A stretch of DNA of 64,000 nt. It comes from Escherichia coli (GTDB lineage Bacteria > Pseudomonadota > Gammaproteobacteria > Enterobacterales > Enterobacteriaceae). The stretch is taken from assembly GCF_036507355.1 (NCBI RefSeq), contig NZ_AP027877.1; one strand, given 5' to 3'. Position 1 is the stretch's first letter. Each line of letters starts with the position of its first letter. The translations under genes were made by a program, and so were the position numbers. A model generated the notes under the pieces. That model worked only from the letters and a program-made list of their open reading frames with translations. It did no database searches and was not told the DNA's origin. Positions 15,824 through 54,184 of the stretch are shown in pieces.

Positions 15824-16768
15824 ATGAGTCCTGATAATATCGGTTCGGCTGTCAATCGCTTCTCAGGTTGGCCATCTAATGATTCTCTAAAAACAGATAA
15901 AGAATCAATGACATCACCCGTGACTGTGCAGGTAATAAAGATGATTGCCGCCATCCTTGACCCACATCGGATAGTCGTTGGAATCGATACACTTTATACA
16001 ACGCAGCGCGAAACATTTACCTCAGAGAGTCAACAGCTCATTGAATCAGCATTGCAAACACTTCATGTGATGAATTTAAATAATCTGGAAACAAATCGCG
16101 ATGAAGAAGGTCACTATCTGGCTTTTGAATATAACGTTGACACCTCTGACAGAATAACCGTTTCTGCTTATAATGAAAAAAAGCCTGGCTGCTATGGCCA
16201 ATGTCTTGTAATACAGGATGACGAAACAGACTTATTTAACCTGATAAAAATTAAAATTTTCGAAGCCAGGCATAATTATGTCGCTCAATTGATGAGCGAT
16301 CCGGAATTTATGTTCAAATTCAGTTATAGCGCTCAACAAAATAGATTAGAACCTCATCTTCTGGTTCCCGCTTATTTCCCTCTAAAAACAAACGAACCGG
16401 TTACGCAAGAGGATGTACTGTTACTTTATCGTTTCTTTAAAATGAATGATGATTTTAATAAATTAACATCAGATGAATACATGAGTATCCTGACACCTCT
16501 GATGAAGTGTGAGCGTAGCGTCCACGACAACAACAGGTATGTGACGGGCAAAGATACCCTTCTTCTGGACTATCCTCCTTCTGGTAACCAGATACATTTC
16601 CATGTTTTCCCTGACGAATCAGCAACACTAGTCCTTTATTTTTCAAACAATGACCTTGAATGTTTCGTCTTTGAAAGAGATATTCCTAGCCAGTATCGCT
16701 TTTTCAAAATGTTTACCAATCTGGCACTGGTTATAGATCAGTTAACCGAAGCCAATAAAATACTTTAA
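15824..16768 (+). CDS. hypothetical protein (314 aa), AT-rich island ORF of unknown function
   Basis: long ORF in AT-rich DNA at the edge of the island; no family recognised by eye; not part of the K-12 backbone as I recall it. Confidence 0.55.
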   Translation: MSPDNIGSAVNRFSGWPSNDSLKTDKESMTSPVTVQVIKMIAAILDPHRIVVGIDTLYTTQRETFTSESQQLIESALQTLHVMNLNNLETNRDEEGHYLAFEYNVDTSDRITVSAYNEKKPGCYGQCLVIQDDETDLFNLIKIKIFEARHNYVAQLMSDPEFMFKFSYSAQQNRLEPHLLVPAYFPLKTNEPVTQEDVLLLYRFFKMNDDFNKLTSDEYMSILTPLMKCERSVHDNNRYVTGKDTLLLDYPPSGNQIHFHVFPDESATLVLYFSNNDLECFVFERDIPSQYRFFKMFTNLALVIDQLTEANKIL

Positions 16769-16848
16769 TTTTCTATATATCCCTATGGCTAATATTGCTA
16801 AACAATGCCTGGGGATTAATTTTTATTACTCACGGAAAGATTTAAATA

Positions 16849-17271
16849 ATGATACCATCTCAGATCTCTTTCAATACCCTTCCAGTCAATGCAACATACG
16901 CTTCAGAGACAACAGTTGACACACAAAAATTCTCTGACATCCTCTACTCAGCGGGGTGTTCCCTAAAGGATATGGCTTATCTGAGCAGATGTCTGGCATC
17001 AATACACCCGACTATCGCCAAAAACATTTATGAAACAGAAAATCTCAGCGATCAAAAATTACTGCATATTGATTGCCGTAGTACAAATGAAATCAAGATA
17101 AATATCTTTTTTGGTCAGCAAAGAGAAGGGTTAATTGAAATTAGTTCTGACACAGTTATTTTTTCGATACTGTCTTCATTGATTGACTCCGCCATTTCTA
17201 AATTTCAACACCAAAACCCGGTTAACGGTTTAGTTAATCCTGAAATATTGTATGAGGATTATACTGATTAA
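16849..17271 (+). CDS. hypothetical protein (140 aa), small acidic protein of unknown function
   Basis: co-oriented 80 bp downstream of the 314-aa ORF, same AT-rich composition. Confidence 0.5.
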   Translation: MIPSQISFNTLPVNATYASETTVDTQKFSDILYSAGCSLKDMAYLSRCLASIHPTIAKNIYETENLSDQKLLHIDCRSTNEIKINIFFGQQREGLIEISSDTVIFSILSSLIDSAISKFQHQNPVNGLVNPEILYEDYTD

Positions 17272-17818
17272 ATCCACCCTGTCGCGAAAAATGGCCTGCG
17301 TTATTGCCAGACGTAATAAAACCTTTGATTAACGTTACTCATACTGGTAGCACCTTCATGTACCTCTCTTTTTTACGAAAAATCAAAAGAGCTAACTAAG
17401 GTCATAATTCGCATGAATCATTAACCATTTGTTATTTTCAACATTATTTTTACATTAAGCAGAGATGAATTGCAGTGAAATTCGACTTAAATCTTATGAA
17501 ATGCATTTACTCATGGCTAAAACCACGTCACAAAAATGCAAATTAGAAGTAGATCACAATTATCTCAATACATTAAATCAAGTTAATTTTAAAAATTTAA
17601 CATTCATGACATTAGTTGACATAACACACTGAATTAACATGGAAATTTAAAAACACACTTTAAACAATCATTTCCCGAAAGACATTTTGAAAATAGATCA
17701 ATTGCAACATTACGGTCAGATAAAGACACTCCTGTGATATTAAACCTGTGCCGTTATGAACGGCCATAAATACGACGTGTGTAACTTATTTTACTCTCTG
17801 TCTTACAAAGGATTACCC

Positions 17819-18268
17819 ATGAAGAAAGCAACACTTGTGATTGGCGTTATTGGCGCGGACTGCCATGCAGTAGGCAATAAAGTTCTGGACCGCGTTTTTA
17901 GCAACCACGACTTCAGAGTCATTAATCTGGGCGTAATGGTCAGCCAGGACGAATATATTGATGCTGCCATTGAAACTGGCGCTGACGCGATTGTCGTCTC
18001 CTCTATCTATGGGCATGGCGATATCGACTGTCTGGGCATGCGCGAACGCTGCATCGAGCGTGGACTGGGGGACATCCTGCTCTATGTGGGCGGTAACCTG
18101 GTGGTCGGAAAACATGACTTCGCTGACGTGGAAACCAAATTCAAAGAGATGGGATTTGATCGCGTCTTTGCCCCAAGTCATGACTTAGAAGATGTTTGTC
18201 AGCTGATGGCCCACGATATCAACCAACGTCATGACATTGATACTCGTATTCTTGAAGAGGCTATCTGA
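17819..18268 (+). CDS. glmS: glutamate mutase sigma (S) subunit, B12-binding (methylaspartate mutase small subunit)
   Basis: [24 protein letters not shown]... contains the DxHxxG cobalamin-binding motif and resembles Clostridium GlmS/MutS; start set at the Met preceded by aaaggatt. Confidence 0.88.
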
Positions 18269-19656
18269 TGCAAATCGTCTCTGTCGATATTGGATCGACG
18301 TGGACCAAAGCAGCCCTCTTCACCCGGGAGGGGGACGCGTTAACGTTGGTTAACCACGTACTGACCCCAACCACCACCCATCATCTGGCGAAGGGGTTTT
18401 TCTCCAGCCTGAACCAAGTGTTAAACGTAGATAATGCCCTCCCCCTGTTAAACAGCGGTGAGGTTGCATTGAAGTATTCCTCCTCTGCCAAAGGTGGGCT
18501 GGCGGTTGCCGCAATGGGATTGGTGCCTTCTATCACCCTGGAAACCGCGAAAGTAACCGCTCACTCTGCGGGTGCTAAAATTGCGCAATATTACGCCTAC
18601 AAGCTGAACCGCCGTGATATCCAGGCACTGGAAGAAACGCAGCCCGATATTCTCTTGTTCACCGGCGGCACCGACGGCGGAGAAGAAAGCTACGGACTGA
18701 ATAACGCCCGTGTGCTGGCAGAATCCAAACTCGACTGCGCCATTATTTATGCCGGAAACCGGGATATTCAGGACGAGGTGCAGGAGCTCCTCGGGCATAA
18801 AGACCTGACCATCGTCGACAATGTTCTGCCCGATCTTGACCATCCGAACCCTTTAGCCGCACGCCAGGCTATTTGCGACATATTCCTTAAACGCATCGTT
18901 AAAGGGAAAGGGCTGGATGTCATTGTTGATAAAACAGGCGAAGAACCAATGCCGACACCATGGACGGTCTTTGAACTGGTCAAGGCAATCAGTAACGTCG
19001 ATCACAGCTGGAAAGAGTTCATGCTGATCGACATGGGCGGCGCAACCACCGATGTTTATTCCGTCTGTGCCAACACGCTCTCGCCCGACACCGTTTTACA
19101 CGGCGTACCGGAACCCTTCGTAAAACGGACGGTGGAAGGCGATCTGGGAATGCGCGTCTCGGCAGTGGTGGTTGGTGAAAGTGCGAAAGAGTTAGTCAAT
19201 GTGAATTTTGCTCAGCAACCCGCACAGCTGGACGCTTTTTATCATTACCTCCGTCATCTAGTCGCTCATCCCGACTACTTACCCGCAAATGCAGAAGAGA
19301 AATATTTCGATACCGTCCTGGCCGGACTGTGTGTGGGTTATGCCACCGAAAGACATGCGGGCACCAAAAAAGAGGTCTGCACCTGCGTCGGCAATGTCGA
19401 TTTACAGATGGGACGTGACCTGACAACCGTGCGTAAAGTCGTCGGATCCGGCGGATGGCTCTCGCGTGCCAGTCAGTTCGATATGCATCACTGGTTGAAA
19501 TACCGCGAGTTAAACGACGACGGTAAACGCATTCTCTTACCGACCGAATTTGAATATTACCGCGATTCCCGGGGGCTATTACCACTGCTGGCAAACGTCG
19601 CCAGAGTCGATCCGCTGGCCGCCGCGCGCACCAGTATTCAATGCTTAACCCTATAA
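18268..19656 (+). CDS. glmL: glutamate mutase accessory protein GlmL/MutL (actin-fold ATPase)
   Basis: 462-aa ORF between the S and E subunit genes as in clostridial mutS-mutL-mutE operons. Confidence 0.8.
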   Translation: MQIVSVDIGSTWTKAALFTREGDALTLVNHVLTPTTTHHLAKGFFSSLNQVLNVDNALPLLNSGEVALKYSSSAKGGLAVAAMGLVPSITLETAKVTAHSAGAKIAQYYAYKLNRRDIQALEETQPDILLFTGGTDGGEESYGLNNARVLAESKLDCAIIYAGNRDIQDEVQELLGHKDLTIVDNVLPDLDHPNPLAARQAICDIFLKRIVKGKGLDVIVDKTGEEPMPTPWTVFELVKAISNVDHSWKEFMLIDMGGATTDVYSVCANTLSPDTVLHGVPEPFVKRTVEGDLGMRVSAVVVGESAKELVNVNFAQQPAQLDAFYHYLRHLVAHPDYLPANAEEKYFDTVLAGLCVGYATERHAGTKKEVCTCVGNVDLQMGRDLTTVRKVVGSGGWLSRASQFDMHHWLKYRELNDDGKRILLPTEFEYYRDSRGLLPLLANVARVDPLAAARTSIQCLTL

Positions 19657-19674
19657 CAATTAAGGCTGCAATCA

Positions 19675-21120
19675 ATGGAACTTCGAAATAAGAAATTAAC
19701 CCATGACGAATTCATGACCGAGCGGCAACAGGTACTGAAAACCTGGGAAACCGGCAAGGATGTTGAAAACTTTGAAGATGGCGTTAAATACCAACAAACC
19801 ATCCCTGAGCATAAACGCTTCTCTCTTGCGCTGCTGAAAGCAGACAAGGAAGGTAAAACCCTTAGCCAACCGCGCGCAGGTGTGGCGCTGATGGACGAAC
19901 ACATCGAACTGCTGAAAACACTACAAGAAGAGTGCGATCTGCTGCCAAGCACCATCGATGCATATACCCGTCTGAATCGGTACGAAGAAGCGGCTGTAGG
20001 GATTAAAAAATCCATCGAAGCCGGAACCTCTAAACTGAACGGTTTACCGGTAGTTAACCATGGTGTCGCAGCTTGCCGTCGCCTCACCGAAACCCTGCAA
20101 AAACCGCTACAGATCCGCCACGGCACGCCAGATGCGCGTCTGCTGGCTGAAATCTCAATGGCCAGCGGCTTTACCAGTTATGAAGGCGGTGGCATTTCCT
20201 ACAACATTCCGTATGCCAAACGCGTAACGCTGGAAAAATCGATCCGCGACTGGCAGTACTGCGACCGTTTAATGGGGATGTATGAAGAACACGGGATCCG
20301 CATCAACCGCGAACCGTTTGGCCCACTAACGGGTACGCTGATCCCGCCGTTTATCTCGCATTCTATCGCGATAATCGAAGGCTTGCTGGCACTGGAACAG
20401 GGTGTGAAATCTATCACCGTTGGTTATGGCCAGGTCGGCAGCCTGACGCAGGATGTTGCGGCGATCCAGTCTCTGCGTGAACTTGCACACGAATATTTTC
20501 AGAGCTATGGCTATACCGACTATGAATTGAGTACCGTGTTTCACCAGTGGATGGGCGGCTTTCCGGAAGACGAATCGAAAGCGTTCGCTATTATCTCCTG
20601 GGGTGCAGCCGTCGCGGGGATGTCTGGTGCCACCAAAGTCATCACCAAAAGTCCGCACGAAGCCTGGGGTATCCCGACTGCCGCTGCCAACATTCAGGGG
20701 CTGAAAGCCTCCCGCCAGATGCTCAACATGGTCAATGAGCAGAAATTCCCGCCGTGCCCTGCGGTTGAACTGGAAATTGAACTGATTAAGAGCGAGGTTC
20801 GCGCTGTACTGAATAAAGTGTTCGAACTGGGTAATGGTGATATTGCGCGCGGTACGGTGCTGGCATTTGAAGCGGGCGTACTGGATGTGCCATTTGCGCC
20901 AGCCGCCTGCAACGCGGGCAATATTCTTCCGGTCCGTGACAACACCGGCGCGATACGCGTACTGGAAGCCGGAGCCGTTCCATTGCCAAAAGATATTCTC
21001 GATCTCCACCACGATTACGTTGCGGAACGCGCACGCTTTGAAGGACGCCAACCGACATTCCAGATGGTTGTAGATGACATCAATGCTGTATCCCACAGTA
21101 AATTAATAGGAAGACCATAA
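19675..21120 (+). CDS. glmE: glutamate mutase epsilon (E) catalytic subunit
   Basis: 481-aa ORF MELRNKKLTHDEFMTERQQVL... with extended similarity to clostridial GlmE (QPRAGVALMDEHIELL, PSTIDAYTR, GGGISYNIPYAK, REPFGPLTGTL, FQMVVDD). Confidence 0.9.
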   Translation: MELRNKKLTHDEFMTERQQVLKTWETGKDVENFEDGVKYQQTIPEHKRFSLALLKADKEGKTLSQPRAGVALMDEHIELLKTLQEECDLLPSTIDAYTRLNRYEEAAVGIKKSIEAGTSKLNGLPVVNHGVAACRRLTETLQKPLQIRHGTPDARLLAEISMASGFTSYEGGGISYNIPYAKRVTLEKSIRDWQYCDRLMGMYEEHGIRINREPFGPLTGTLIPPFISHSIAIIEGLLALEQGVKSITVGYGQVGSLTQDVAAIQSLRELAHEYFQSYGYTDYELSTVFHQWMGGFPEDESKAFAIISWGAAVAGMSGATKVITKSPHEAWGIPTAAANIQGLKASRQMLNMVNEQKFPPCPAVELEIELIKSEVRAVLNKVFELGNGDIARGTVLAFEAGVLDVPFAPAACNAGNILPVRDNTGAIRVLEAGAVPLPKDILDLHHDYVAERARFEGRQPTFQMVVDDINAVSHSKLIGRP

Positions 21121-22361
21121 TGAAAATAAAACAGGCTCTGTTCACCGCTGGCTACTCCTCATTCTATTTCGATGACCAGCAGGCGATAAAAAACGGAGCG
21201 GGTCATGACGGCTTTTTTTATACCGGGGAGCCGGTAACACAGGGGTTTAACGCCGTTCGTCAGGCCGGGGAGTGCGTATCGGTACAGTTGATTCTGGAAA
21301 ACGGCGCGGTCGCTGTAGGTGACTGTGCTGCCGTACAGTATTCCGGGGCAGGTGGTCGCGACCCACTGTTCCTCGCAGAGCTCTTTATTCCGTTCCTCAA
21401 CGACCATATCAAGCCATTACTGGTAGGCCGCGATGTGGATGCTTTCCTGCCGAATGCCCGTTTCTTCGACAAATTGCGTATTGACGGCAACTTGCTGCAT
21501 ACCGCCGTGCGCTACGGATTATCACAGGCGCTGCTTGATGCTACCGCGCTGGCAACCGGCCGTCTGAAAACTGAAGTGGTCTGTGATGAATGGCAGTTGC
21601 CACGCGTGGCGGAATCCATTCCATTATTTGGTCAGAGCGGCGACGATCGATATATCGCCGTCGATAAGATGATCCTTAAGGGCATCGACGTGCTGCCCCA
21701 TGCGCTGATTAATAACGTCGAAGAGAAGCTGGGCTTTAAAGGTGAAAAACTGCGCGAATATGTCCGCTGGTTGTCGGATCGCATTCTAAGCAAGCGCACC
21801 AGCGCACGCTACCACCCAACCTTGCACATCGATGTATACGGCACTATCGGTCTGATCTTCGATATGGATCCGCTTCGCTGTGCGCAATACATCGCCAGCC
21901 TGGAAAAAGAAGCGCAAGGCCTGCCGCTCTACATTGAAGGGCCGGTCGATGCCGGTAACAAGCCCGATCAAATTCGCCTGCTGACCGCGATTACCAAAGA
22001 GCTGACGCGCCTCGGTTCCGGCGTGAAAATTGTGGCCGATGAATGGTGTAACACCTACCAGGATGTTGTTGATTTCACTGATGCCGCCAGTTGTCACATG
22101 GTGCAAATCAAAACCCCGGATCTGGGCAGTATTCACAACATCGTCGATGCGGTTCTTTACTGCAACAGCCACAGCATGGAAGCGTACCAGGGCGGCACCT
22201 GCAATGAAACTGATGTCAGTGCCCGCACCTGTGTCCACGTCGCCCTTGCCGCTCGCCCTATGCGTATGCTGGTAAAGCCAGGGATGGGCTTTGACGAAGG
22301 CCTCGATATCGTCTTCAACGAAATGAATCGTACTATCGCGCTGTTGCAGGCTAAGGATTAA
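21120..22361 (+). CDS. mal: 3-methylaspartate ammonia-lyase
   Basis: 413-aa ORF; motifs GDCAAVQYSGAGGRDPLF, PHALINNVEEKLG, HMVQIKTPDLG match clostridial methylaspartase (enolase superfamily). Confidence 0.9.
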   Translation: MKIKQALFTAGYSSFYFDDQQAIKNGAGHDGFFYTGEPVTQGFNAVRQAGECVSVQLILENGAVAVGDCAAVQYSGAGGRDPLFLAELFIPFLNDHIKPLLVGRDVDAFLPNARFFDKLRIDGNLLHTAVRYGLSQALLDATALATGRLKTEVVCDEWQLPRVAESIPLFGQSGDDRYIAVDKMILKGIDVLPHALINNVEEKLGFKGEKLREYVRWLSDRILSKRTSARYHPTLHIDVYGTIGLIFDMDPLRCAQYIASLEKEAQGLPLYIEGPVDAGNKPDQIRLLTAITKELTRLGSGVKIVADEWCNTYQDVVDFTDAASCHMVQIKTPDLGSIHNIVDAVLYCNSHSMEAYQGGTCNETDVSARTCVHVALAARPMRMLVKPGMGFDEGLDIVFNEMNRTIALLQAKD

Positions 22362-22364
22362 CAA

Positions 22365-22565
22365 ATGGCTCGTTCTTTTAAAGTCTTATCGCCAACAGCA
22401 ATCCTCGGGTATGGATTCCCGGAAGAGAGCTTCCGCAAAGCGATGGCAGAATCACCCGATCTGATCGCCGTTGATGCAGGCTCTTCCGATCCAGGCCCCC
22501 ACTACCTCGGGCAGGCAAACCGTTTACCGATCGCGCAGGGGTCAAGCGCGATCTGCGCTATATGA
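22365..22565 (+). CDS. N-terminal segment of a DUF1446 (AtuA-like) protein, separated from the main ORF by a frame change
   Basis: 66-aa ORF ending in ATGA overlap with the next ORF; the next ORF's frame is open upstream to 22475, so the two likely form one gene. Confidence 0.45.
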   Translation: MARSFKVLSPTAILGYGFPEESFRKAMAESPDLIAVDAGSSDPGPHYLGQANRLPIAQGSSAICAI

Positions 22566-23734
22566 TCACCGCAGGCGTGCAAAATAATATACCGGTGGTG
22601 ATCGGAACGGCCGGCGGTTCTGGTGCCGCTCCACACCTGGAGTGGTGCCGAGAAATAATTCATGAGATTGCCCAGGAAGAGCACCTCTCGTTCTCGATGG
22701 CGTTGATCCCGGCAGACGTTGACAAAGCCATCGTCCACCAGGCGCTGGATAACGGCAAAATCACGGCGCTGGATTTTGTCCCGCCGTTAACCCACGACGC
22801 GATTGACGAAAGTACGTATATCGTCGCGCAAATGGGCATCGAACCCTTCCAGCGGGCGCTAAAAGAAGGCGCGCAAGTGGTGCTGGGTGGGCGCGCTTAC
22901 GACCCGGCCTGCTTTGCTGCGCTACCGATCATGCAAGGCTTTGATGAAGGTCTGGCGCTGCATTGTGGGAAAATCCTTGAATGCGCGGCAATCGCCGCAA
23001 CGCCCGGCTCAGGCTCTGACTGTGCGATGGGCATCATTGATGACAACGGCTTTACGCTGAAGACATTTAATCCGAAGCGTAAATTTACCGAAACGTCAGC
23101 AGCTGCACACACACTGTATGAGAAATCCGATCCCTACTTCCTGCCAGGACCTGGCGGCGTGTTGAACCTGAAAGGCTGCACATTTAAAGCAGTCAATGAC
23201 GGCGAAGTCTACGTCAGCGGTTCTAAGCATGAAGAAACGCCGTATGCCCTGAAACTGGAAGGTGCACGACGGGTGGGCTTCCGCTGTCTGACCATCGCCG
23301 GAACGCGCGACCCGATTATGATCGCCGGGATCGATAAACTCATCGATGAAGTCAAAACCAGCGTTTCGCGTAACCTGTCGCTCGACGATGACAGCATTCG
23401 CATCAATTTCCACCTGTACGGCAAAAACGGGGTGATGGGAGACCATGAACCGATGCAAACTGCCGGGCATGAGCTGGGGATTGTTCTTGATGTAGTTGCA
23501 CCGACCCAGGAAATTGCCAATAGCGTTTGCTCGCTGGTGCGCTCTACCATGCTGCACTACGGCTATGAAAACCGCATCGCTACCGCAGGTAATCTGGCGT
23601 TCCCGTTCTCCCCTTCTGATATCCAGGGCGGGCCGGTATACGAATTTTCCATATATCACCTGATTGAAGCCAACGACGCTCTGCGTTTTGATTTCCATAT
23701 TGAACAGGTGACGCCAGAAGGAGTTCAGGCATGA
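22562..23734 (+). CDS. DUF1446 (AtuA-like) family protein, main part
   Basis: 390-aa ORF; combined with the upstream 66-aa ORF gives about 456 aa, the usual DUF1446 size; followed by its usual small DUF4387 partner. Confidence 0.65.
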   Translation: MITAGVQNNIPVVIGTAGGSGAAPHLEWCREIIHEIAQEEHLSFSMALIPADVDKAIVHQALDNGKITALDFVPPLTHDAIDESTYIVAQMGIEPFQRALKEGAQVVLGGRAYDPACFAALPIMQGFDEGLALHCGKILECAAIAATPGSGSDCAMGIIDDNGFTLKTFNPKRKFTETSAAAHTLYEKSDPYFLPGPGGVLNLKGCTFKAVNDGEVYVSGSKHEETPYALKLEGARRVGFRCLTIAGTRDPIMIAGIDKLIDEVKTSVSRNLSLDDDSIRINFHLYGKNGVMGDHEPMQTAGHELGIVLDVVAPTQEIANSVCSLVRSTMLHYGYENRIATAGNLAFPFSPSDIQGGPVYEFSIYHLIEANDALRFDFHIEQVTPEGVQA

Positions 23735-24048
23735 AACAGTCAATTGTCTCACTGGCGCAAGTCATTCGTTCGAAAAATGCCGGACCTTACGAACTGGTTT
23801 TAGATATTTTATTTAAAACGAAAGAAAACTATGAGCGAGTTAAATCATCAGGGCAATTAACCCCAGAACTGATTGCGCGCTTATATCATGTTGAACCTGA
23901 CTTTATTCATCGTATTGTCTGGTTTGATCCTTCTAACGCAGTAAAAATCGTCATGCCACGAGATATTATCTCCGGGAATGTAGGTGACAATGATGTCTAT
24001 GGTGCACAGCAACATGCACCTTTATTAAATATGAGTTTCGATTTGTAA
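23731..24048 (+). CDS. DUF4387 family small protein (partner of DUF1446/AtuA-like proteins)
   Basis: 105-aa ORF translationally coupled (ATGA overlap) to the DUF1446 ORF. Confidence 0.6.
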   Translation: MKQSIVSLAQVIRSKNAGPYELVLDILFKTKENYERVKSSGQLTPELIARLYHVEPDFIHRIVWFDPSNAVKIVMPRDIISGNVGDNDVYGAQQHAPLLNMSFDL

Positions 24049-24131
24049 AAATCCGAATACTTTTAGCCAACTGACATCCCGTCACTTATTGCAGTTCAAC
24101 ACTTCAGCTATTTGTAAGGTTGTAATAGCAG

Positions 24132-24163
24132 GTAGATGCCTGAATCTCTATTCAGGCATCTAC
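24132..24163 (+). terminator. strong stem-loop between the DUF4387 gene and the transporter gene (terminator or attenuator)
   Basis: perfect 14-bp inverted repeat gtagatgcctgaat/attcaggcatctac with 4-nt loop, followed by a T-rich stretch. Confidence 0.4.
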
Positions 24164-24208
24164 TTCTCCTGATTCTGATTTATCGCCGTGCACCTGATGG
24201 AGGAAAAA

Positions 24209-25489
24209 ATGAAGAAAATAAGTTTAACCACGATGATTCTTTTGGCGCTGGTACTTGGAATGATTATCGGCGTAGTGCTCAATAACACTGCTTCACCGGA
24301 AACAGCAAAACTCTATGCGCAAGAAATATCGATATTCACGACGATTTTCTTACGACTGATAAAAATGATTATCGCTCCGTTAGTGGTCTCTACCCTGGTG
24401 GTAGGTATTGCTAAAATGGGCGATGCCAAAGCCCTTGGTCGTATTTTTTCTAAAACACTCTTTTTATTTATTTGCGCCTCATTGCTGTCAATTGCCTTAG
24501 GCTTGATAACGGTAAATTTCTTCATGCCAGGCACAGGAATTAATTTTGTTGCACACGGTGCCGAAACCACAGGAGTGGTCGCGTCAGAACCCTTTACGCT
24601 AAAAGTATTTATTTCGCATGCTTTCCCCACCAGCATTGTCGATGCCATGGCGCACAATGAAATTTTGCAAATCGTGGTGTTCTCAATTTTCCTCGGCTGT
24701 AGCCTGACGGCGATTGGCGAGAAAGGCAGCGCCATCGTTCACGCCTTAGATTCGCTGGCACATGCCATGTTAAAGCTCACTGGCTACGTCATGCTCTTCG
24801 CTCCCCTGACCGTATTCGCCGCTATTTCAGCATTGATTGCTGAACGAGGACTGGCAGTTATGGTGAGCGCCGGGATCTTTATGGGTGAATTTTATTTCAC
24901 CATGTTATTACTTTGGGTGCTGCTTATCGGTCTGGCCATCGTTTATGTCGGCCCCTGCATCAGACGCCTGACCCGCGCCCTTTCGGAACCCGCCCTGCTG
25001 GCATTTACCACATCCAGTTCTGAAGCGGCTTTTCCGGGAACGCTTGAAAAACTGGAGCAATTTGGCGTTTCCCCCAAAATTGCCAGCTTTGTCTTACCCA
25101 TTGGCTACTCATTTAATCTCGTTGGATCAATGGCCTACTGCTCCTTCGCCACAGTTTTCATCGCCCAGGCCTGCAATATCCATTTATCCATCGGTGAGCA
25201 AATCACCATGCTGTTGATCCTGATGTTGACCTCGAAAGGAATGGCTGGCGTACCACGCGCCTCAATGGTGGTTATCGCCGCCACGCTCAACCAGTTCAAT
25301 ATTCCGGAAGCGGGGCTGATCTTGCTGATGGGCGTTGATCCGTTCCTTGATATGGGGCGTTCCGCGACAAACGTCATGAGCAACGCAATGGGCGCTGCGA
25401 TGGTGAGTCGGTGGGAAGGCGAACATTTCGGCGAGGGCTGTCGGGGTAAAGCATTAAAACCCAATGAATCGAACGTTGCTCTGCCCTGA
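24209..25489 (+). CDS. dicarboxylate/amino acid:cation symporter (DAACS family; glutamate/aspartate or C4-dicarboxylate transporter)
   Basis: polytopic membrane ORF with DAACS-like N-terminus; start chosen at MKKISL preceded by a GGAGGA ribosome-binding site (ORF track starts 21 nt earlier at 24188). Confidence 0.8.
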   Translation: MKKISLTTMILLALVLGMIIGVVLNNTASPETAKLYAQEISIFTTIFLRLIKMIIAPLVVSTLVVGIAKMGDAKALGRIFSKTLFLFICASLLSIALGLITVNFFMPGTGINFVAHGAETTGVVASEPFTLKVFISHAFPTSIVDAMAHNEILQIVVFSIFLGCSLTAIGEKGSAIVHALDSLAHAMLKLTGYVMLFAPLTVFAAISALIAERGLAVMVSAGIFMGEFYFTMLLLWVLLIGLAIVYVGPCIRRLTRALSEPALLAFTTSSSEAAFPGTLEKLEQFGVSPKIASFVLPIGYSFNLVGSMAYCSFATVFIAQACNIHLSIGEQITMLLILMLTSKGMAGVPRASMVVIAATLNQFNIPEAGLILLMGVDPFLDMGRSATNVMSNAMGAAMVSRWEGEHFGEGCRGKALKPNESNVALP

Positions 25490-25596
25490 GGGGGATCTTA
25501 AGCAATCAGAAGCCAATGACTACGCATTTTTATAAGCCGGATCATGAAGTTAGACGGCAATTAAGTAACACTAACGTTTAAGGTGAAAAGTGAAAT

Positions 25597-27249
25597 ATGT
25601 CCAAACCATTTATCTGGCAAGAACCGTTTCTACAAAATAAAGACGGTACAGAATATACATTAATTAGCGATCAACATATTACAGTAACGGAATTAGACGG
25701 CGAAGAAGTGATAAAAATCGCTCCTGAAGCATTAACGCTGCTTGCCCGGCAGGCATTTTATGAAGCCTCTTTTTTCTTACGTTCCGCTCATTTGCAACAG
25801 GTCGCCAGCATTCTTAACGATCAGCAGGCCAGCAGTAATGATAAATACGTTGCGTTGCAGTTATTACGTAATGCTGAAGTCTCAGCAAAAGGGGTATTAC
25901 CCAACTGTCAGGATACCGGCACCGCAACTATTGTTGCCAGTAAAGGGCAACAGATATGGACCGGAAGTAACGACGCCGAAGCTTTAAGTAAAGGCATTTA
26001 CAGTACTTTCCAGGAAAATAATCTGCGCTTTTCACAAAATGCGCCGCTGGATATGTATACCGAAGTCAATACGCAAACCAATCTCCCGGCGCAGATTGAT
26101 ATCAGCGCTGTCGCTGGTGATGAGTACCATTTTCTCTGTGTTAATAAAGGGGGCGGCTCCGCCAATAAAGCCGCGCTTTATCAGGAAACCAAATCCTTAT
26201 TGCAACCAGAAAAACTGACCGCATTTTTAATCGAAAAAATGAAATCGCTGGGCACCGCTGCCTGCCCGCCTTACCACATCGCCTTTGCCGTCGGAGGGCT
26301 TTCAGCCGATCAAACCTTAAAAGTTGCCAAGCTGGCCTCAACGAAATATTACGACAATTTGCCCACCAGCGGAAACGAGCAGGGACAAGCATTCCGTGAT
26401 ATTGAGCTGGAAAAAGCGTTGCTCGAGGCCAGTCAGCAATTTGGTATTGGTGCACAATTTGGGGGGAAATATTTCGCTCATGATATTCGCGTCATTCGTC
26501 TGCCGCGTCACGGTGGCTCTTGCCCGATAGCTATGGCGCTCTCCTGTTCTGCCGATCGCAATATCAAAGCAAAAATTAACAAACACGGTATCTGGCTAGA
26601 AAAACTCGAACACAATCCGGGGCAATATATTCCAGCCTCATTGCGGGAAGAAAATCACGCGCAACATGTACAACTGGATCTAAACCGTCCGTTGCGTGAC
26701 GTGATGCTGGATCTCGCCAGATTACCGGTAGGTACCCGCGTGTCGTTAAGTGGTCCCATCGTAGTGGCGCGCGATATCGCCCACGCCAAAATAAAAGCGC
26801 GGCTGGATAGCGGCGAATCGATGCCGGAGTACCTGAAGCATCATATTGTCTATTACGCTGGCCCGGCGAAAACACCGGAGAACATGGCCTGCGGTTCACT
26901 GGGTCCAACCACGGGCGGTCGAATGGATGGTTATGTCGATACCTTCCAGGCGGCCGGCGGCAGTCTGGTGATGTTATCGAAAGGTAACCGCAGCCAGCAG
27001 GTCACCGATGCCTGTCACAAACATGGCGGCTTCAATCTGGGAAGTATTGGCGGTGCAGCTGCGTTACTGGCGCAAGAATATGTCAAAAGTCTGCGTTGCC
27101 TGGAATACCCGGAGCTGGGTATGGAAGCGGTGTGGATGATGGAAGTGGAAAATCTGCCCGCATTCATCCTGGTAGATGATAAAGGCAATAATTTCTTTAG
27201 TCAGTTTGAGCAGCAACACCGCTGCGCCAGTTGCCCTGCGGGACATTAA
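25597..27249 (+). CDS. fumD: class I (Fe-S) fumarate hydratase homologue, mesaconase/fumarase FumD type
   Basis: 550-aa ORF collinear with E. coli FumA ([40 protein letters not shown]); clustered with glutamate mutase and methylaspartase as described for fumD. Confidence 0.85.
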
Positions 27250-27258
27250 GGAAAATGA

Positions 27259-27861
27259 ATGGAAGCGCGAATTTCAACTGAACGGCATGTGCAGCGCCAA
27301 CAGAAATTGAAGGAACAGGTCGATACGCGCGTCGCGGCGGCGATAGAGAAAAAAGGGATCTTGATTGTTTTCACCGGCAACGGCAAAGGGAAATCCACTG
27401 CCGCGTTTGGTACTGTGACGCGCGCGGTGGGTCATGGCAAAACGGTGGGGGTTGCGCAGTACATCAAGGGGCAATGGGACAACGGCGAATACAACCTTCT
27501 CCAGCCGCTGGGGGTTGAGTTTCATATTATGGGAACCGGTTTTACCTGGGAGACACAGAACCGGCAAGCGGATATCGACGCGGCGAAAGAGGTCTGGTCG
27601 GAAAGCAAACGGATGCTGGCTGACAAGCGTTACGACTTAGTGGTGCTTGATGAGCTGACCTATATGCTGGCTTACCATTATTTGGATACCGAAGAAGTGA
27701 TCGCTTCTCTGCAAAACCGCCCGGCACAACAAAGTGTCATTGTCACCGGACGCGGTTGCCACAGTCAGATATTAAAAATGGCGGATACGGTAAGCGAAAT
27801 CCGCCCCGTCAAACATGCTTTTGATAACGGCATTCAGGCCCAGCCGGGTATAGACTGGTAA
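27259..27861 (+). CDS. cob(I)yrinic acid a,c-diamide / cob(I)alamin adenosyltransferase (BtuR/CobA family)
   Basis: 200-aa ORF with P-loop GNGKGKSTAAFG and high overall similarity to E. coli BtuR. Confidence 0.85.
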   Translation: MEARISTERHVQRQQKLKEQVDTRVAAAIEKKGILIVFTGNGKGKSTAAFGTVTRAVGHGKTVGVAQYIKGQWDNGEYNLLQPLGVEFHIMGTGFTWETQNRQADIDAAKEVWSESKRMLADKRYDLVVLDELTYMLAYHYLDTEEVIASLQNRPAQQSVIVTGRGCHSQILKMADTVSEIRPVKHAFDNGIQAQPGIDW

Positions 27862-27864
27862 TAA

Positions 27865-27897
27865 CTGCGCCTGGCATCCCGCCAGGCGCAGGTTTTA
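27865..27897. terminator. bidirectional intrinsic terminator between the adenosyltransferase gene and the convergent LysR gene
   Basis: ctgcgcctggc-atcc-gccaggcgcag hairpin followed by gtttta. Confidence 0.6.
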
Positions 27898-28557
27898 CAT
27901 CTCCTGCGGTACGACCGATTTCGCCAGCAACCATTCACGAAATTGCTGCAAGTGCGGTGAGTCAGACTTCTCTTCCTGCCACGTCATAATAAAACGATTA
28001 CCGGTACGAATAGGCACATCACAGGGAATCACCATATCGCCACTATCCAAATCATGTTGAATAGCGAAACGTGGTAACAGCGCCACGCCGAGATTAGAGC
28101 GCACGGCGGCAATCAGCATTGAAAGCAAATCGAAACGTGGTCCGTTATTGACCAACGGACTGCTAACGCCAGATAAAGCAAACCACTCTTCCCAGCCAGT
28201 AATACGGGTGCTTTGATGCAGAAGCGGTAACTCAGTAAGCAGTTCTGCCACTGACAGCTTTTGATCGGACATTGCAAGCAAACTGCCGCTGCATACCGGC
28301 AAAATCTCCTCATCAAAGAGATATTCTACTTCCGCCCAGGGCGCGCAAAAATTTTCGCGCATAATGACAGCATCGTACTCCCGATTAAGAAAATCGCCGT
28401 TATTAGCTAAAGAATGAATATTAACAATAATATCGGGATGTAACTTTGTGAATTCATGTAAATTTGGGATCAACCAGTGGGTACTAAAAGTAGGATTAAC
28501 GGCAAGTTCAATAACCTGAACCGTAGGCTGCCAGGTCATAATGGTATTGGTATCGCG
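27895..28557 (-). pseudogene. LysR-family transcriptional regulator, C-terminal effector-domain portion (gene interrupted by IS1)
   Basis: 214-aa ORF from an internal Met; reading frame continues upstream (RDTNTI) to the IS1 junction. Confidence 0.8.
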
Positions 28558-28612
28558 GGTGATGCTGCCAACTTACTGATTTAGTGTATGATGGTGTTTT
28601 TGAGGTGCTCCA

Positions 28613-28888
28613 GTGGCTTCTGTTTCTATCAGCTGTCCCTCCTGTTCAGCTACTGACGGGGTGGTGCGTAACGGCAAAAGCACCGCCGGACATCAGCGCT
28701 ATCTCTGCTCTCACTGCCGTAAAACATGGCAACTGCAGTTCACTTACACCGCTTCTCAACCCGGTACGCACCAGAAAATCATTGATATGGCCATGAATGG
28801 CGTTGGATGCCGGGCAACAGCCCGCATTATGGGCGTTGGCCTCAACACGATTTTACGTCACTTAAAAAACTCAGGCCGCAGTCGGTAA
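28613..28888 (+). CDS. insA: IS1 protein InsA
   Basis: 91-aa [46 protein letters not shown]... identical in character to IS1 InsA. Confidence 0.95.
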
Positions 28889-29310
28889 CCTCGCGCATAC
28901 AGCCGGGCAGTGACGTCATCGTCTGCGCGGAAATGGACGAACAGTGGGGCTATGTCGGGGCTAAATCGCGCCAGCGCTGGCTGTTTTACGCGTATGACAG
29001 GCTCCGGAAGACGGTTGTTGCGCACGTATTCGGTGAACGCACGATGGCGACGCTGGGGCGTCTTATGAGCCTGCTGTCACCCTTTGACGTGGTGATATGG
29101 ATGACGGATGGCTGGCCGCTGTATGAATCCCGCCTGAAGGGAAAGCTGCACGTAATCAGCAAGCGATATACGCAGCGAATTGAGCGGCATAACCTGAATC
29201 TGAGGCAGCACCTGGCACGGCTGGGACGGAAGTCGCTGTCGTTCTCAAAATCGGTGGAGCTGCATGACAAAGTCATCGGGCATTATCTGAACATAAAACA
29301 CTATCAATAA
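28807..29310 (+). CDS. insB: IS1 transposase InsB frame (expressed as InsAB' by -1 frameshifting)
   Basis: 167-aa ORF in the -1 frame overlapping the insA 3' end, typical IS1 organisation. Confidence 0.9.
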
Positions 29311-29325
29311 GTTGGAGTCATTACC

Positions 29326-29577
29326 GGTATCGCGTTCCAGCTTATTTAATGTTTCTTTTACTATCCCCAGGTAATACTTCCCAGCATCATTAAGAAAAAT
29401 GCGTTTTTTAGAGTGTGAAAATAACGGAGTACGTAAAAATTCCTCCAGCGCACTTACTTGTCTGAATACTGCACTTTGGGTTAACGCTAACTCCTCTGCC
29501 GCTCTGGTATAACTTTCATGACGTGCGACGACCTCAAAAGTCACCAGCAGTTCCGTTTTAGGTATTTTCCCTCGCAT
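29326..29577 (-). pseudogene. LysR-family transcriptional regulator, N-terminal HTH portion (gene interrupted by IS1)
   Basis: MRGKIPKTELLVTFEVVARHESYTRAAEELALTQSAVFRQVSALEEFLRTPLF... is a LysR-type HTH; the frame runs into IS1 after ...KLERDT. Confidence 0.8.
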
Positions 29578-30243
29578 AATGCCGTCCCTTAAAAATAGTT
29601 TAAACCATCAAAAATACATTACTTATTACGAAGTAATGGTAACCAAAGCAGCAATAAATAATTTATAAGAATCATGATTGACATTTATAAACCAGTAAGC
29701 CTGGCGTGACAAATATCTTAATCAGATAATAATAATCCGAAAAGCACAGCGCCTTTCGAATTATCCGGAATCACATTAAGTGAAAATTATTAAATTGATA
29801 TCATTTATCATATCTGTGGATATTATGATAAACAATCAACAAAGATTTTATTTTTGATTTATAGCATATCCCTCTAAGAATTTTTGCGATGCTGCAATAT
29901 CCGGGGTAAAGACCCGATCCTGGCTGACAAATGGCACGACTTGACGAAAAGCGGTGAACATCGCTTTTGTTGATTTACTTAACGCTACGGTCAAACGCTG
30001 GGAAGCCAGTGCATCAGGTAACGATTCGAAATTCGCCGTCGTTCTTATTCGTGGCTTGCGGTCGGTTGCGGCAATCCACAGTGGCTGTGGTCATGCAGTC
30101 AAGCCTGCAGTCAGATTTCGACCGTGGTTAACCGTTTAAGGCATAAAAAAGGCCATCATACGATGGCCAACCATGTCGAAACCGACAGCCCTTCGCCATT
30201 CCTGTAGAGGGAAGCGGCGAGGGCTATTTCTTATTACAGATAT

Positions 30244-31113
30244 TTATTTCAGAACAGTTTTCAGTGCTTCACCGATATCCGCCAGGCTGCGAACGGTTTT
30301 CACGCCTGCGGCTTCCAGAGCAGCGAATTTCTCATCCGCAGTCCCTTTCCCACCGGCAATGATGGCACCCGCGTGGCCCATACGTTTGCCTTTCGGCGCA
30401 GTCACACCAGCGATGTAACCCACAACTGGCTTGGTAACGTGCTCTTTGATGTACGCAGCTGCTTCTTCTTCAGCGCTACCGCCGATCTCACCGATCATCA
30501 CGATCGCTTCGGTCTGCGGATCTTTTTCGAACATTTCGAGAATGTCGATAAAGTTAGAGCCAGGGATCGGGTCACCGCCGATACCGACACAGGTCGACTG
30601 ACCGAAACCGTAATCCGTGGTCTGTTTAACCGCTTCATAGGTCAGTGTACCGGAACGGGAAACGATACCCACTTTACCCGGTTTGTGAATGTGACCCGGT
30701 TGGATACCAATTTTGCATTCACCCGGGGTGATAACGCCTGGGCAGTTCGGGCCGATCATACGAACGCCGGCTTCATCCAGTTTCACTTTCACAGTCAGCA
30801 TATCCAGCGTCGGGATGCCTTCAGTGATGGTGATAATCAGTTTGATGCCTGCGTCGATGGCTTCCAGAATGGAGTCTTTGCAGAACGGTGCTGGTACGTA
30901 GATAACAGAAGCGGTAGCGCCAGTAGCAGCAACAGCTTCACGCACGGTGTTGAACACCGGCAGGCCGAGGTGGGTAGTACCGCCTTTACCTGGAGTTACG
31001 CCACCAACCATTTTGGTGCCGTATGCAATGGCCTGTTCAGAGTGGAAAGTCCCCTGGCTACCGGTAAAGCCCTGGCAGATAACCTTGGTGTTTTTATCAA
31101 TTAAAATGGACAT
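30244..31113 (-). CDS. sucD: succinyl-CoA synthetase alpha subunit
   Basis: 289-aa ORF matching SucD. Confidence 0.97.
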
Positions 31114-32279
31114 TATTTCCCCTCCACTGCGGCAACAACCTGCTGAGCTGCATCCGTCAGACCTTTTGCTGCAATAATATTCAGGCCGCTGTCAGCCAGT
31201 TTCTTCGCGCCGAGTTCGGCGTTGTTACCTTCCAGACGTACCACGACCGGTACGTTAACACCCACTTCCGCTACCGCGCCGATGATACCGTCAGCGATCA
31301 GATCGCAACGAACGATACCGCCGAAGATGTTAACCAGAACGGCTTTCACTTTGTCGTCAGAGAGGATGATTTTGAACGCTTCGGTTACACGTTCTTTGGT
31401 TGCGCCGCCGCCAACGTCCAGGAAGTTAGCCGGTTCTCCGCCGTGCAGTTTAACGATGTCCATCGTACCCATCGCCAGACCTGCGCCGTTAACCATACAA
31501 CCGATGTTACCGTCCAGCGCAACGTAGTTCAGTTCCCACTGTGCAGCCTGTGCTTCACGTGGATCTTCCTGCGACTGGTCACGCATTTCGCGCAGATCAG
31601 GCTGGCGGAACAGGGCGTTGCCATCAGCGCCCAGTTTGCCGTCGAGGCAAATCAGATCACCCTGTTTGGTGATGACCAGCGGGTTGATTTCGATCAACGC
31701 CAGGTCGCGCTCCAGGAAAATGGTCGCCAGGCCCATGAAGATTTTGGTGAACTGCTGAACCAGTTTACCTTCCAGACCCAGTTTGAACGCCAGCTCGCGT
31801 CCCTGATACGGCATCGGGCCAGTCAGCGGATCAAGCGCAACTTTGTGGATCAGGTGCGGAGTTTCTTCCGCCACTTTTTCGATTTCCACGCCGCCTTCGG
31901 TAGAGGCCATAAAGACCACGCGACGTGAACTACGGTCTACAACGGCACCGAGATACAGCTCTTTAGCGATATCGGTCGCCGCTTCAACCAGAATCTGGTT
32001 AACCGGTTGGCCATTGGCATCTGTTTGATACGTTACCAGACGCTTGCCCAGCCAGTTTTCTGCAAAAGCACGGATGTCTTCTTTACTGTTTACAACTTTC
32101 ACACCGCCCGCTTTACCGCGGCCACCAGCGTGAACCTGACATTTCACTACCCACGGACCGGCACCGATTTTTGAAGCGGCTTCTTCTGCTTCGCGCGGAG
32201 TAGTACAGGCATAACCCACCGGTGCTGGTAAGCCATAGCGGGCAAAAAGTTGTTTTGCCTGATATTCATGTAAGTTCAT
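31113..32279 (-). CDS. sucC: succinyl-CoA synthetase beta subunit
   Basis: 388-aa [23 protein letters not shown]... Confidence 0.97.
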
Positions 32280-32372
32280 GTGTTCTGTCCATCCTTCAGT
32301 AATCGTTATCTTTTAAACCGTAGACCGACACCCTATCCACGTCGGTCTACAGTGCAGGTGAAACTTAAACTA

Positions 32373-33590
32373 CTACACGTCCAGCAGCAGACGCGTCGGA
32401 TCTTCCAGCAACTCTTTGATCGTTACCAGGAAGCCCACGGATTCGCGACCATCGATCAGACGGTGATCGTAGGACAGCGCCAGGTACATCATCGGCAGGA
32501 TCTCAACCTGACCATTCACCGCCATCGGACGATCTTTGATAGCGTGCATACCCAGAATTGCGCTCTGCGGCGGGTTGATGATCGGCGTAGACATCAGGGA
32601 ACCGAACACACCACCGTTGGTGATGGTGAAGTTACCACCGGTCAGATCTTCAACCGTCAGCTTGCCATCACGGCCTTTGACTGCCAGCTCTTTGATTTTC
32701 TTCTCGATGTCTGCCATGCCGAGGGTATCGACATCACGCAGAACCGGCGTCACCAGGCCGCGCGGCGTAGAAACCGCCATGCTGACGTCGAAATAGTTGT
32801 GGTAAACCACGTCATCGCCGTCGATAGAAGCATTCACTTCCGGGTAACGTTTCAGGGCTTCAACCACCGCTTTCACGTAGAAGGACATAAAGCCCAGACG
32901 GATGCCGTGGCGTTTTTCAAACGCTTCACCGTACTGCTTACGCAGATCCATAATCGGCTTCATGTTGACTTCGTTGAACGTGGTCAGCATGGCGGTGGAG
33001 TTTTTCGCTTCCAGCAGACGCTCTGCCACACGCTTACGCAGGCGAGTCATCGGGACACGTTTTTCACTACGTGCAGCCAGAGCCGGTTGCGCCGCCGAAG
33101 CAGCCGCTGCCGGAGCAGACTCTTTCGCCGGAGCTTTCGCCAGATGTTTTTCCACATCTTCACGGGTCAGACGACCACCCACACCGGTGCCTTTAATGGC
33201 GCTGGCGTCGAGGTTGTGTTCAGCCAGCAGGCGACGGATCGCCGGGCTTAACGCATCGTTGTTTTGCTCTTCCAGAGACGCCTGCTGGCGTTGCGCCGGA
33301 GTGGACGCTTTCTCTTCAGATTTGGCGCTGGTTTCTTTACCGGCGCTGTTGCCTTCACGCAGGCGACCAAGGATCTGACGAGACGTTACCGTTGTACCTT
33401 CATCTTCCAGAACCGCATCCAGAATGCCGTCTGCTGATGCCGGTACTTCCAGTACCACTTTGTCAGTTTCGATTTCTACCAGCACTTCATCACGTACGAC
33501 TGCGTCGCCGGGTTTTTTATGCCAGGTTGCGACGGTGGCATCGGCTACGGATTCAGGCAGGTCAGGGACCAGAATATCTACGCTACTCAT
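32373..33590 (-). CDS. sucB: 2-oxoglutarate dehydrogenase E2 (dihydrolipoyl succinyltransferase)
   Basis: 405-aa [32 protein letters not shown]... Confidence 0.97.
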
Positions 33591-41987: not shown

Positions 41988-42313
41988 TTCGTTAGTTATG
42001 TCTATCGACAAAAAAACGTAATCGGACACAAATACATAATTACACGTTACAAGAATACATATCCGATAACTAAATAAAATCCTAATTTTTCATTCACCAC
42101 CACCGTTATCCCGCCAATCGATGTAGAATACATTGGGTAGCACCCACAATTAAATAAACTCGTAATAGGATTAATTCACTTTATTTATGATTCGAGAGCT
42201 TTGAGAAACTCTCAAACATAATGTAGCAACATTAATATTATTACATGAGCAAAAAACCACTATTCTGTCGGAATAATTAGTATACTTTATCATAGCCCAT
42301 GAAGGATTCATGT

Positions 42314-42880
42314 ATGTTTAAAGGACAAAAAACACTGGCCGCCCTGGCCATATCTCTACTATTCGCTTCACCTGTTTTTGCTGCAGATGAAGGATCTGGT
42401 GAAATCCACTTTAAAGGTGAAGTTATTGAAGCACCTTGTGAAATTCACCCTGATGACCTTGATATGAACATTGACCTGGGTGAAGTAACCACATCCCACA
42501 TAAATCGAGAACATCATAGCGAGAAAAAACCTGTCAATATTCGCTTAATCAACTGTGATATTGCAGACTGGGATGATGGCAACGGTGGCGTGGTCTCAAA
42601 GGTAGGCGTGACCTTCGACAGCACAGCTAAAACGACAGGTGCAACGCCGCTCCTTAGTAACATCAGTGCTGGCGAGGCTACCGGCGTTGGCGTACGTCTC
42701 ATGAACAAAGATGAATCATTTGTTGTATTGGGAACAGAAGCGCCAACAATTGACTTATTGGCAAGTTCAACAGAACAAACGTTAAACTTCTTTGCCTGGA
42801 TGGAACAGATGGATAACGCAGTTTCGGTTACCGCGGGGGCCGTTACTGCTAACGCAACTTACGTTCTGGATTACCAATAA
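42314..42880 (+). CDS. ybgD: fimbrial (pilin) subunit, chaperone-usher type
   Basis: MFKGQKTLAALAISLLFASPVFA signal peptide plus pilin-like body; 188 aa from this Met. Confidence 0.9.
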   Translation: MFKGQKTLAALAISLLFASPVFAADEGSGEIHFKGEVIEAPCEIHPDDLDMNIDLGEVTTSHINREHHSEKKPVNIRLINCDIADWDDGNGGVVSKVGVTFDSTAKTTGATPLLSNISAGEATGVGVRLMNKDESFVVLGTEAPTIDLLASSTEQTLNFFAWMEQMDNAVSVTAGAVTANATYVLDYQ

Positions 42881-42888
42881 TCCTTTTT

Positions 42889-42913
42889 AAGGCGGCTGAT
42901 TAGCCGCCTTTTG
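42889..42913 (+). terminator. stem-loop after ybgD (partial terminator or attenuator before the usher gene)
   Basis: aaggcggct-gatt-agccgcctt hairpin followed by ttgcg. Confidence 0.5.
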
Positions 42914-42929
42914 CGAATATTGTTCAGGT

Positions 42930-45389: not shown

Positions 45390-45403
45390 TTAAGGAAAAG
45401 ACG

Positions 45404-47193: not shown

Positions 47194-47341
47194 TTTAGCC
47201 TATTGCCCTTTCCAGCCGGAGAGGGCTTCTTCGGTTAATTGCCAATTTTCCGGCTTTTATTGATTACCGTTATTTTTTCCATGCCCGGCATTCTTTATGC
47301 TGTATCGATACACCAAAGAGTAAATAATGAGGGAGCAAAGG

Positions 47342-49176: not shown

Positions 49177-49211
49177 GGTGATATCCTTTTTTCATTCTTT
49201 ATTAAACGGGG

Positions 49212-51518: not shown

Positions 51519-51540
51519 TTTCGATCCCTCTGATTATTCG

Positions 51541-52371: not shown

Positions 52372-54036
<1,665 letters not shown>

Positions 54037-54183: not shown

Positions 54184-54184
54184 G

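Follow-up and report, generated by a model that had tools for sequence, protein, structure and literature searches.

In E. coli K-12 and Salmonella, the small RNA SdhX is released from its operon transcript by RNase E processing, binds Hfq, and represses ackA and other mRNAs through a seed sequence (PMC6393394). On the chromosome of K-12 MG1655 its gene (b4764, annotated as ncRNA) occupies positions 765050-765150, immediately downstream of sucD and 2 nt short of the stop codon of mngR, a convergent gene, in a layout that runs from cydA to mngB-mngA-mngR and then sdhX-sucD, with no island. A glutamate-fermentation cluster with FumD, CobA and an LTTR has been described for O157:H7 (Kronen and Berg 2015, PMC4682846); the passages of that paper drawn on here make no mention of sucD, histidine or an island. 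Two further layouts are found in sequenced strains. In AH50, WP2, WB61 and IAI39 the order is island-lysR-hutH-hutG-hutI-hutD-permease-hutU-rtcB followed by sdhX (hereafter hut+), while AR_0372 has island-lysR, ~570 bp of unrelated sequence, and then rtcB-mngB-mngA-mngR followed by sdhX.

The window, by which we mean the whole 64,000-nt stretch of E. coli DNA analyzed here, is colinear with K-12 MG1655 in reverse orientation from nadA, tRNA-Lys, tol-pal and cydAB up to position 15394 (K-12 771085). Colinearity is back from position 30137 (K-12 765155) through sucDCBA, sdhBADC and gltA, with homology restarting at the mngR stop codon (TAAG). The 14.7 kb between the two colinear blocks, comprising the island and the scar described below, stand in place of the K-12 genes mngR-mngA-mngB, and all three are absent from the window. 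In the RefSeq annotation of strain GDSC2227PM, which is identical over the gap, AtuA-family, DUF4387, dicarboxylate symporter, class I fumarate hydratase, cobO and convergent LysR-family genes are listed; wider views of other strains also include glmS/glmL/glmE and methylaspartate ammonia-lyase. At the right edge of the island, the start codon of the lysR-family gene (minus strand) ends at 29577 and the stop codon of sucD (minus strand) lies at 30244-30246, which leaves a gap of 666 bp (29578-30243).

Two other portions of the window depart from the K-12 sequence. On the cydA-proximal flank of the island, positions 15018-15394 show ~80% identity over 381 bp to K-12 771085-771457, against 98% for the neighboring genes, so the left junction region is a diverged allele too. 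Farther away, a 14-kb segment (42302-56233; ybgD-ybgQ fimbrial genes to ~ybgA/phr in K-12 coordinates) is 90.3% identical to K-12 within flanking core sequence of 98-99%.

We are highly confident that the 666-bp gap consists of one working element, the sdhX gene, together with the debris of a lost gene cassette and the old spacer between hutH and lysR (Table 1). Its content is all of known kinds: a characterized 3′-UTR sRNA, pseudogene debris and an intergenic spacer.

Table 1. Features of the sucD-lysR gap and of the adjoining island, in window coordinates; L005 and L007 denote the AR_0372 and AH50 loci used for comparison.
Feature	Positions	Strand	Details and basis
Glutamate-fermentation island	15395-29577		glmS/L/E, mal, fumD-like, cobO, lysR-family gene; the gap lies at its right edge
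Former hutH-lysR intergenic spacer	29578-29847	minus	gapless colinearity with the 270-bp hut+ spacer, L007 22650-22919, 86.3%
Dyad CATTACTT-N6-AAGTAATG, then U5	29617-29638	minus	40-60 nt upstream of the lysR-family ATG; inverted repeat
Candidate sigma-70 promoter, lysR-family gene	29684-29712	minus	-35 TTGTCA (29712-29707), 17-nt spacer, -10 TATAAA (29689-29684)
Orphan terminator-like hairpin	29731-29765	minus	15-bp stem and U-rich tail; downstream of the hutH-like stop
hutH-like 3′ end (last 45 codons and stop)	29848-29985	minus	86% to AH50 L007 22920-23057
hutH-like internal remnant (codons 378-397)	29980-30041	minus	87% to AH50 L007 23401-23461
rtcB internal remnant (codons ~376-393)	30045-30101	plus	91-93% to AR_0372 L005 4001-4057 and AH50 L007 32555-32611
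rtcB 3′-end remnant (last ~13 codons)	30102-30141	plus	92.5% to AR_0372 rtcB, L005 4231-4269
sdhX (RybD), Hfq-dependent sRNA from the sucD 3′ UTR	30143-30243	minus	identity to K-12 b4764
Rho-independent terminator of the sdh-suc operon and SdhX	30145-30168	minus	stem 30151-30168, U6 30145-30150; terminator scan, inverted repeat
SdhX seed UUCGACAUGGU (core CGACAU)	30170-30180	minus	pairs with the ackA start region; published seed (PMC6393394)

The gap is heterogeneous in composition. An earlier note on this DNA had described its left part as AT-rich and its middle as being of ordinary composition with no credible open reading frame, and both descriptions hold: calculated over 100-bp segments, the GC content is 0.25-0.34 over ~29550-29900 and 0.42-0.55 over 29850-30150. 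Inside the gap, the only ORFs of at least 30 aa are one of 48 aa on the minus strand (29848-29994) and two on the plus strand, of 61 aa (29954-30139) and 54 aa (29967-30131). Another plus-strand ORF, of 81 aa (30173-30418), begins in the gap, runs antisense to sdhX and extends into sucD. The gap ORFs have no family match in Pfam.

The middle part was mapped by blastn of the window against the AH50, AR_0372, WP2 and WB61 loci. On this basis we interpret 29848-30141 as a deletion scar of four fragments, a hutH-like pair on the minus strand, joined in one reading frame, and a frameshifted rtcB pair on the plus strand. A sensitive blastn search of 29578-30136 against complete E. coli genomes gave matches of ~86% under the names “histidine ammonia-lyase” and “HAL/PAL/TAL family ammonia-lyase”. 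In the full 28 Gb of E. coli genomes, the 57-nt rtcB piece matched sequence annotated as RtcB family protein (93%, E = 2e-13). From the 5′ end of lysR through the 270-bp spacer to the hutH-like tail, window 29326-29985 matches AH50 L007 22398-23057 at 91% overall. Local tblastn E-values for the fragments were 3e-24 (residues 511-556 of intact HutH against 29848-29985, 87%), 8e-8 (HutH residues 378-397, 90%) and 2e-12, with intact RtcB aligning to the window through residues 376-393 and 451-462. These matches lie well outside what chance would give, and all of the scar pieces are syntenic with the intact genes of other strains. The earlier note had suggested that this segment might be the remnant of replaced genes, for example the mngR 3′ end, or else the right junction of the island. 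Comparison with island-positive genomes bears out the remnant and not its assignment to mngR, and the junction with K-12-like DNA does lie at the right edge of the segment (30137-30141).

Within the hutH-like gene, a 348-bp (116-codon) in-frame deletion separates two pieces that share a 5-nt overlap, AACGC; translated across the join, they give ...LTVALSKSTK.... A deletion of ~9.1 kb (L007 23462-32554), which takes the rest of the hutH-like gene, hutG, hutI, hutD, the permease gene, hutU and ~1.1 kb from the start of rtcB, joins the hutH-like piece to the rtcB piece at 30042-30044. The internal and 3′ remnants of rtcB are separated by a 173-bp out-of-frame deletion, and a +1 C insertion in the 3′ remnant (TTAACCGTTTAAGG vs. 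TTAACGTTTAAGG) leads to a premature TAA at 30137-30139. This last remnant is contiguous with the rtcB/sdhX sequence of AH50 (L007 32787 onward, 97%).

Only 65 of the 556 codons of the hutH-like gene are left, which is not a full-length lyase domain (~466 profile positions). The fragment has no Pfam match and a weak match to the NCBIfam hutH model (E = 3e-4), and we regard it as a pseudogene remnant, not a functional family member. The rtcB remnant consists of ~18 and 12 codons in two different frames and likewise is not a full-length RtcB domain (PF01139), the model for which the intact AH50 RtcB scores 321 bits. We call the lyase gene hutH-like because the AH50 protein, at 277 bits, falls below the cut-off of 539 of the NCBIfam hutH model (TIGR01225) and because its PGAP names are inconsistent; against PF00221 it scores 412 bits (cut-off 27.3). 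Its neighbors hutG, hutI, hutU and hutD point to a role in histidine utilization. The intact AH50 gene (L007 22920-24590) encodes a signal-peptide-like N-terminus, MKGLIRRVTVTVVLWSVCSIAMAKS..., and the substrate and cellular location of its product may differ from those of classical HutH.

The slot between the lysR-family gene and sdhX has at least four contents in E. coli: mngBAR without the island, rtcB plus mngBAR, hut plus rtcB, and the scar, in which the island and lysR are followed by the scar and sdhX. A survey of 5,426 complete E. coli genomes found the scar, counted where at least 80% of the 666-bp query was covered, in 835, including O157:H7 and O145 strains, the full hutH-like gene, representing the intact parent layout, in 145, and a full rtcB at the locus in 290. 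In the hut+ layout of AH50, the stop codon of rtcB falls within the A-run belonging to the sdhX terminator, and the rtcB/sdhX junction, TTTAAGG followed by CATAAAAAAGGCC, is identical in the hut+ strains and the window, from which it follows that the loss (or absence) of mngBAR predates the scar. Relative to the AR_0372 type, the join falls within the shared TAAG, between the penultimate codons of rtcB and the mngR stop codon.

Between mngB and rtcB, AR_0372 (L008 8670-8687) carries a second hairpin, GGCCATC-CGAA-GATGGCC, which has the stem of the sdhX terminator and a different loop; K-12 lacks it. Deletion of mngBAR by way of this second GGCCATC/GATGGCC hairpin was considered and rejected, since the join, at TAAG(G), is to the left of that hairpin.

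The right-hand end of the gap had been left unassigned in the earlier note except for a sucD terminator hairpin at about 30143-30167, with a match to a known intact gene or sRNA named as the finding that would overturn that view. BLASTN against K-12 gives just such a match: the window sequence at 30143-30243 agrees with b4764 at 100 of 101 nt, the sole difference being at 30144, the penultimate nucleotide. The hairpin itself was placed nearly correctly, and the 101 nt are sdhX and not merely a terminator. Its hairpin, GGCCATC-ATAC-GATGGCC, has a 7-bp GC-rich stem and is followed on the minus strand by U6, the terminal U-tract of an Hfq-binding module; the GGCCATC/GATGGCC pattern occurs once in the window, where none is expected by chance. 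Directly 5′ of the stem, the window sequence accatgtcgaa has as its reverse complement the published seed. The predicted fold of the RNA (-41.3 kcal/mol, z = -4.7) keeps the terminator hairpin intact. We therefore identify 30143-30243, by its sequence, as the known sRNA gene sdhX with seed and terminator intact. All but one of the 5,426 complete E. coli genomes (5,425) contain some part of the 666-bp query, evidently its sucD-proximal sdhX end. Positions 27500-32500 matched nothing in Rfam 15 at E ≤ 1; most likely Rfam has no matching family, since the K-12 sdhX is itself nearly identical to the window copy.

On the strength of this 99% identity, we assume that processing, Hfq binding and ackA repression take place in the window strain as well. 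RNase E would thus liberate SdhX from the 3′-terminal part of the sdhCDAB-sucABCD transcript; the sRNA, whose own 3′ end is set at the GGCCATC/GATGGCC terminator, would repress ackA and other mRNAs through the seed UUCGACAUGGU.

The AT-rich left part of the gap, which matches the hutH-lysR spacer of hut+ strains without a gap, retains the terminator-like hairpin that went with the hutH-like gene and, probably, a promoter for the lysR-family gene. The hairpin at 29731-29765 has a predicted fold of -19 kcal/mol (z = -3.5), and its hut+ allele one of -24.1 kcal/mol (z = -5.8); these models suggest an orphaned terminator of the hutH-like gene. The earlier note had placed a probable lysR promoter in this AT-rich DNA. 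The region does lie directly upstream of that gene and a promoter is plausible, in the form of a candidate, TTGTCA-N17-TATAAA, that was read by eye: a consensus promoter scan reported no minus-strand site, and plus-strand matches at chance level only, and as the scan demands T at position 6 of the -10 element, TATAAA is not reported by it. Both hexamers are invariant between the scar and hut+ alleles, while the spacer as a whole is 14% diverged. The arms of the dyad at 29617-29638 are likewise invariant across alleles, with a variable loop (fold z = -0.4; hut+ z = -3.0), and this element might be a leader hairpin or an operator. Just 3′ of the hutH-like stop codon there is also a perfect 9-bp inverted repeat, TTTATCATA-N11-TATGATAAA (29804-29832), of which 7/9 is conserved in hut+.

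What the earlier note missed is that the lysR-family gene whose promoter it invoked is broken. An IS1 element (768 bp, insA/insB, 9-bp target duplication) at 28558-29325 splits it at about codon 84, leaving minus-strand ORF pieces at 27895-28539 and 29245-29577. A search of the 5,426 complete E. coli genomes did not find the IS1 junction, and the insertion appears to be strain-specific.

The divergence of the scar from its intact counterparts is informative as to its origin. Identity to the hut+ strains (L007, L009 and L010) is 99.2% in the 5′ end of lysR and drops to 86% right at the lysR start codon (29577/29578), a change which we read from the alignments as a sharp recombination boundary. 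Beyond it, the spacer and all fragments show 84-91% identity, whichever of the three intact alleles is compared. In the coding fragments, 33 nucleotides differ from the intact alleles, 22 of them at third codon positions, and of the 29 codons affected 21 are changed synonymously. Such a bias indicates that most of the divergence built up while the genes were under purifying selection, and hence that the scar goes back to a separate hut-rtcB haplotype and did not arise by prolonged neutral decay; the fragments therefore appear to derive from a diverged, once-functional allele, ~14% from the known hut alleles.

The parent allele itself was sought in three collections. A “distant” blastn search of the 5,426 complete E. 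coli genomes returned nothing closer than 86% for an intact parent. A degenerate HutH C-terminal peptide pattern run against 100,044 species genomes (GTDB representatives) did not find it either, matching only Escherichia whittamii, which has another scar, and a “Citrobacter sp.” MAG with an ordinary hut+ allele. In JGI/ENA metagenome contigs a scar-specific 24-mer hit two more scar-type contigs and no parent allele. The scar of E. whittamii Sa2BVA5 (L011 1-1100) lies at the same locus with different breakpoints, and retains 315 bp from the 3′ end of the hutH-like gene, 134 bp of hutU and ~115 bp from the 3′ end of rtcB. We take it to be independent, which supports repeated loss of the cassette. 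Both scars keep the hutH-like 3′ end on the side of the lysR-family gene and the rtcB 3′ end on the side of the sdhX terminator.

Other explanations of the scar may be weighed against these data. That 29870-30140 is the decayed 3′ end of mngR could be argued from K-12, where mngR runs towards the same terminator and ends in a TAA that lines up with the one at 30137-30139. However, blastn at word size 7 finds no similarity to mngR left of 30137, tblastn with K-12 MngR gives noise (best E = 0.5), and the bases of the segment match the hutH-like gene and rtcB at 86-93%; the null searches together with these matches rule mngR out, and we give it practically no credence. Scarcely more credible is the proposal that the short form is ancestral and that hut and rtcB were inserted later in other strains. 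The scar-type genomes do outnumber the hut+ genomes (835 to 145), but the scar combines separate stretches, some internal and some terminal, of two coding sequences that converge, with the frame kept and divergence biased to third positions, a pattern that insertion could not create, and E. whittamii has a different fragment set from the same genes, including the hutU piece.

It is also highly improbable that the scar encodes a genuine small protein, be it the 61-aa plus-strand ORF or the 84-aa “hypothetical protein” WP_001309348.1. PGAP does annotate the latter CDS over the scar in a few scar-type genomes, and it joins two hutH-like fragments in frame. Yet it is made up of the last 45 residues of the lyase and residues 378-397, plus antisense rtcB, and has no Pfam match; in the window it is interrupted by TAG (minus strand, ~30093-30091), which leaves the 48-aa ORF, a hutH-like tail with a TTG start. 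Most RefSeq records have nothing annotated over the scar, and in O157:H7-type genomes PGAP leaves the stretch empty. The 61-aa ORF, for its part, is antisense hutH continuing into the frameshifted rtcB tail. A little less remote, though still very unlikely, is that the scar or spacer holds some functional RNA or regulatory element beyond SdhX that has gone unrecognized, such as an antisense or leader RNA for the lysR-family gene. The conserved hairpins at 29731-29765 and 29617-29638 and the perfect 9-bp inverted repeat would speak for this, but nothing in Rfam matched at E ≤ 1, the hairpins are adequately explained as a hutH-like terminator and a leader or operator, and strains of the AR_0372 type have an intact lysR-family gene with only 18 bp of upstream sequence in common, followed by ~570 bp of unrelated AT-rich DNA. 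The spacer region is accordingly not indispensable to that gene.

Returning to loss of the cassette as the preferred account, the ancestor would have had lysR-hutH-hutG-hutI-hutD-permease-hutU-rtcB abutting the sdhX terminator. Three deletions (~9.1 kb, 348 bp and 173 bp) would have removed nearly the whole cassette, and the +1 C insertion would have become fixed. Left over would be ~200 bp of hutH-like and ~97 bp of rtcB sequence, neither of them able to encode a functional protein. As the parent allele was not found intact, the exact order of the deletions is one that we can only infer.

More tentatively, at somewhat short of an even chance in our estimation, the stretch from the lysR-family start codon to the sdhX terminator is a hotspot of recombination and replacement, and the O157-type scar stems from an unsampled third hut-rtcB haplotype. 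Were this so, the independent loss in E. whittamii would suggest that the cassette has repeatedly been selected against or that selection has relaxed, and both 3′ ends might have been kept because deletions reaching the upstream region of the lysR-family gene or the SdhX/suc terminator were purged.

The biology of the region is little changed by these results, for SdhX, the sole functional element, is already well studied, and the remainder is gene debris. Only the multi-allelic replacement slot with its unsampled parent haplotype is mildly novel. The scar shows O157:H7, O145 and many other E. coli to descend from a lineage that once had a histidine-utilization-like operon and a second rtcB beside the glutamate-fermentation island, and it offers a small but clean marker for tracing how this variable locus has changed. 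For annotation, sdhX could be added to O157:H7-type genomes, and the 84-aa “hypothetical protein” is spurious.

Compared with the described systems, the window carries the same cluster as the O157:H7 methylaspartate-pathway island (PMC4682846), and differs from the system portrayed there in that the LTTR gene is split by IS1. The window copy of SdhX shares with those of K-12 and Salmonella the site directly after the sucD stop codon, the length of 101 nt, the seed and the terminator; it differs from K-12 in the U-tract, which reads ...UUUUUUAU in the window and ...UUUUUUGU in K-12, and in its convergent neighbor, an rtcB remnant in the window and mngR in K-12. The 3′ end of K-12 mngR, convergent with sucD/sdhX, has its stop position (TAAG) in common with the window junction, while upstream of the stop there is no similarity. 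Closest of all is the hut-rtcB cassette of AH50, IAI39, ST648, WP2-W18-ESBL-08 and WB61, which occupies the same site between the lysR-family gene and the sdhX terminator in the same orientation and shares the rtcB/sdhX junction sequence TTTAAGGCATAAAAAAGGCC with the window; of its roughly 10 kb, ~300 bp are left in the window, ~14% diverged from the three intact alleles examined.
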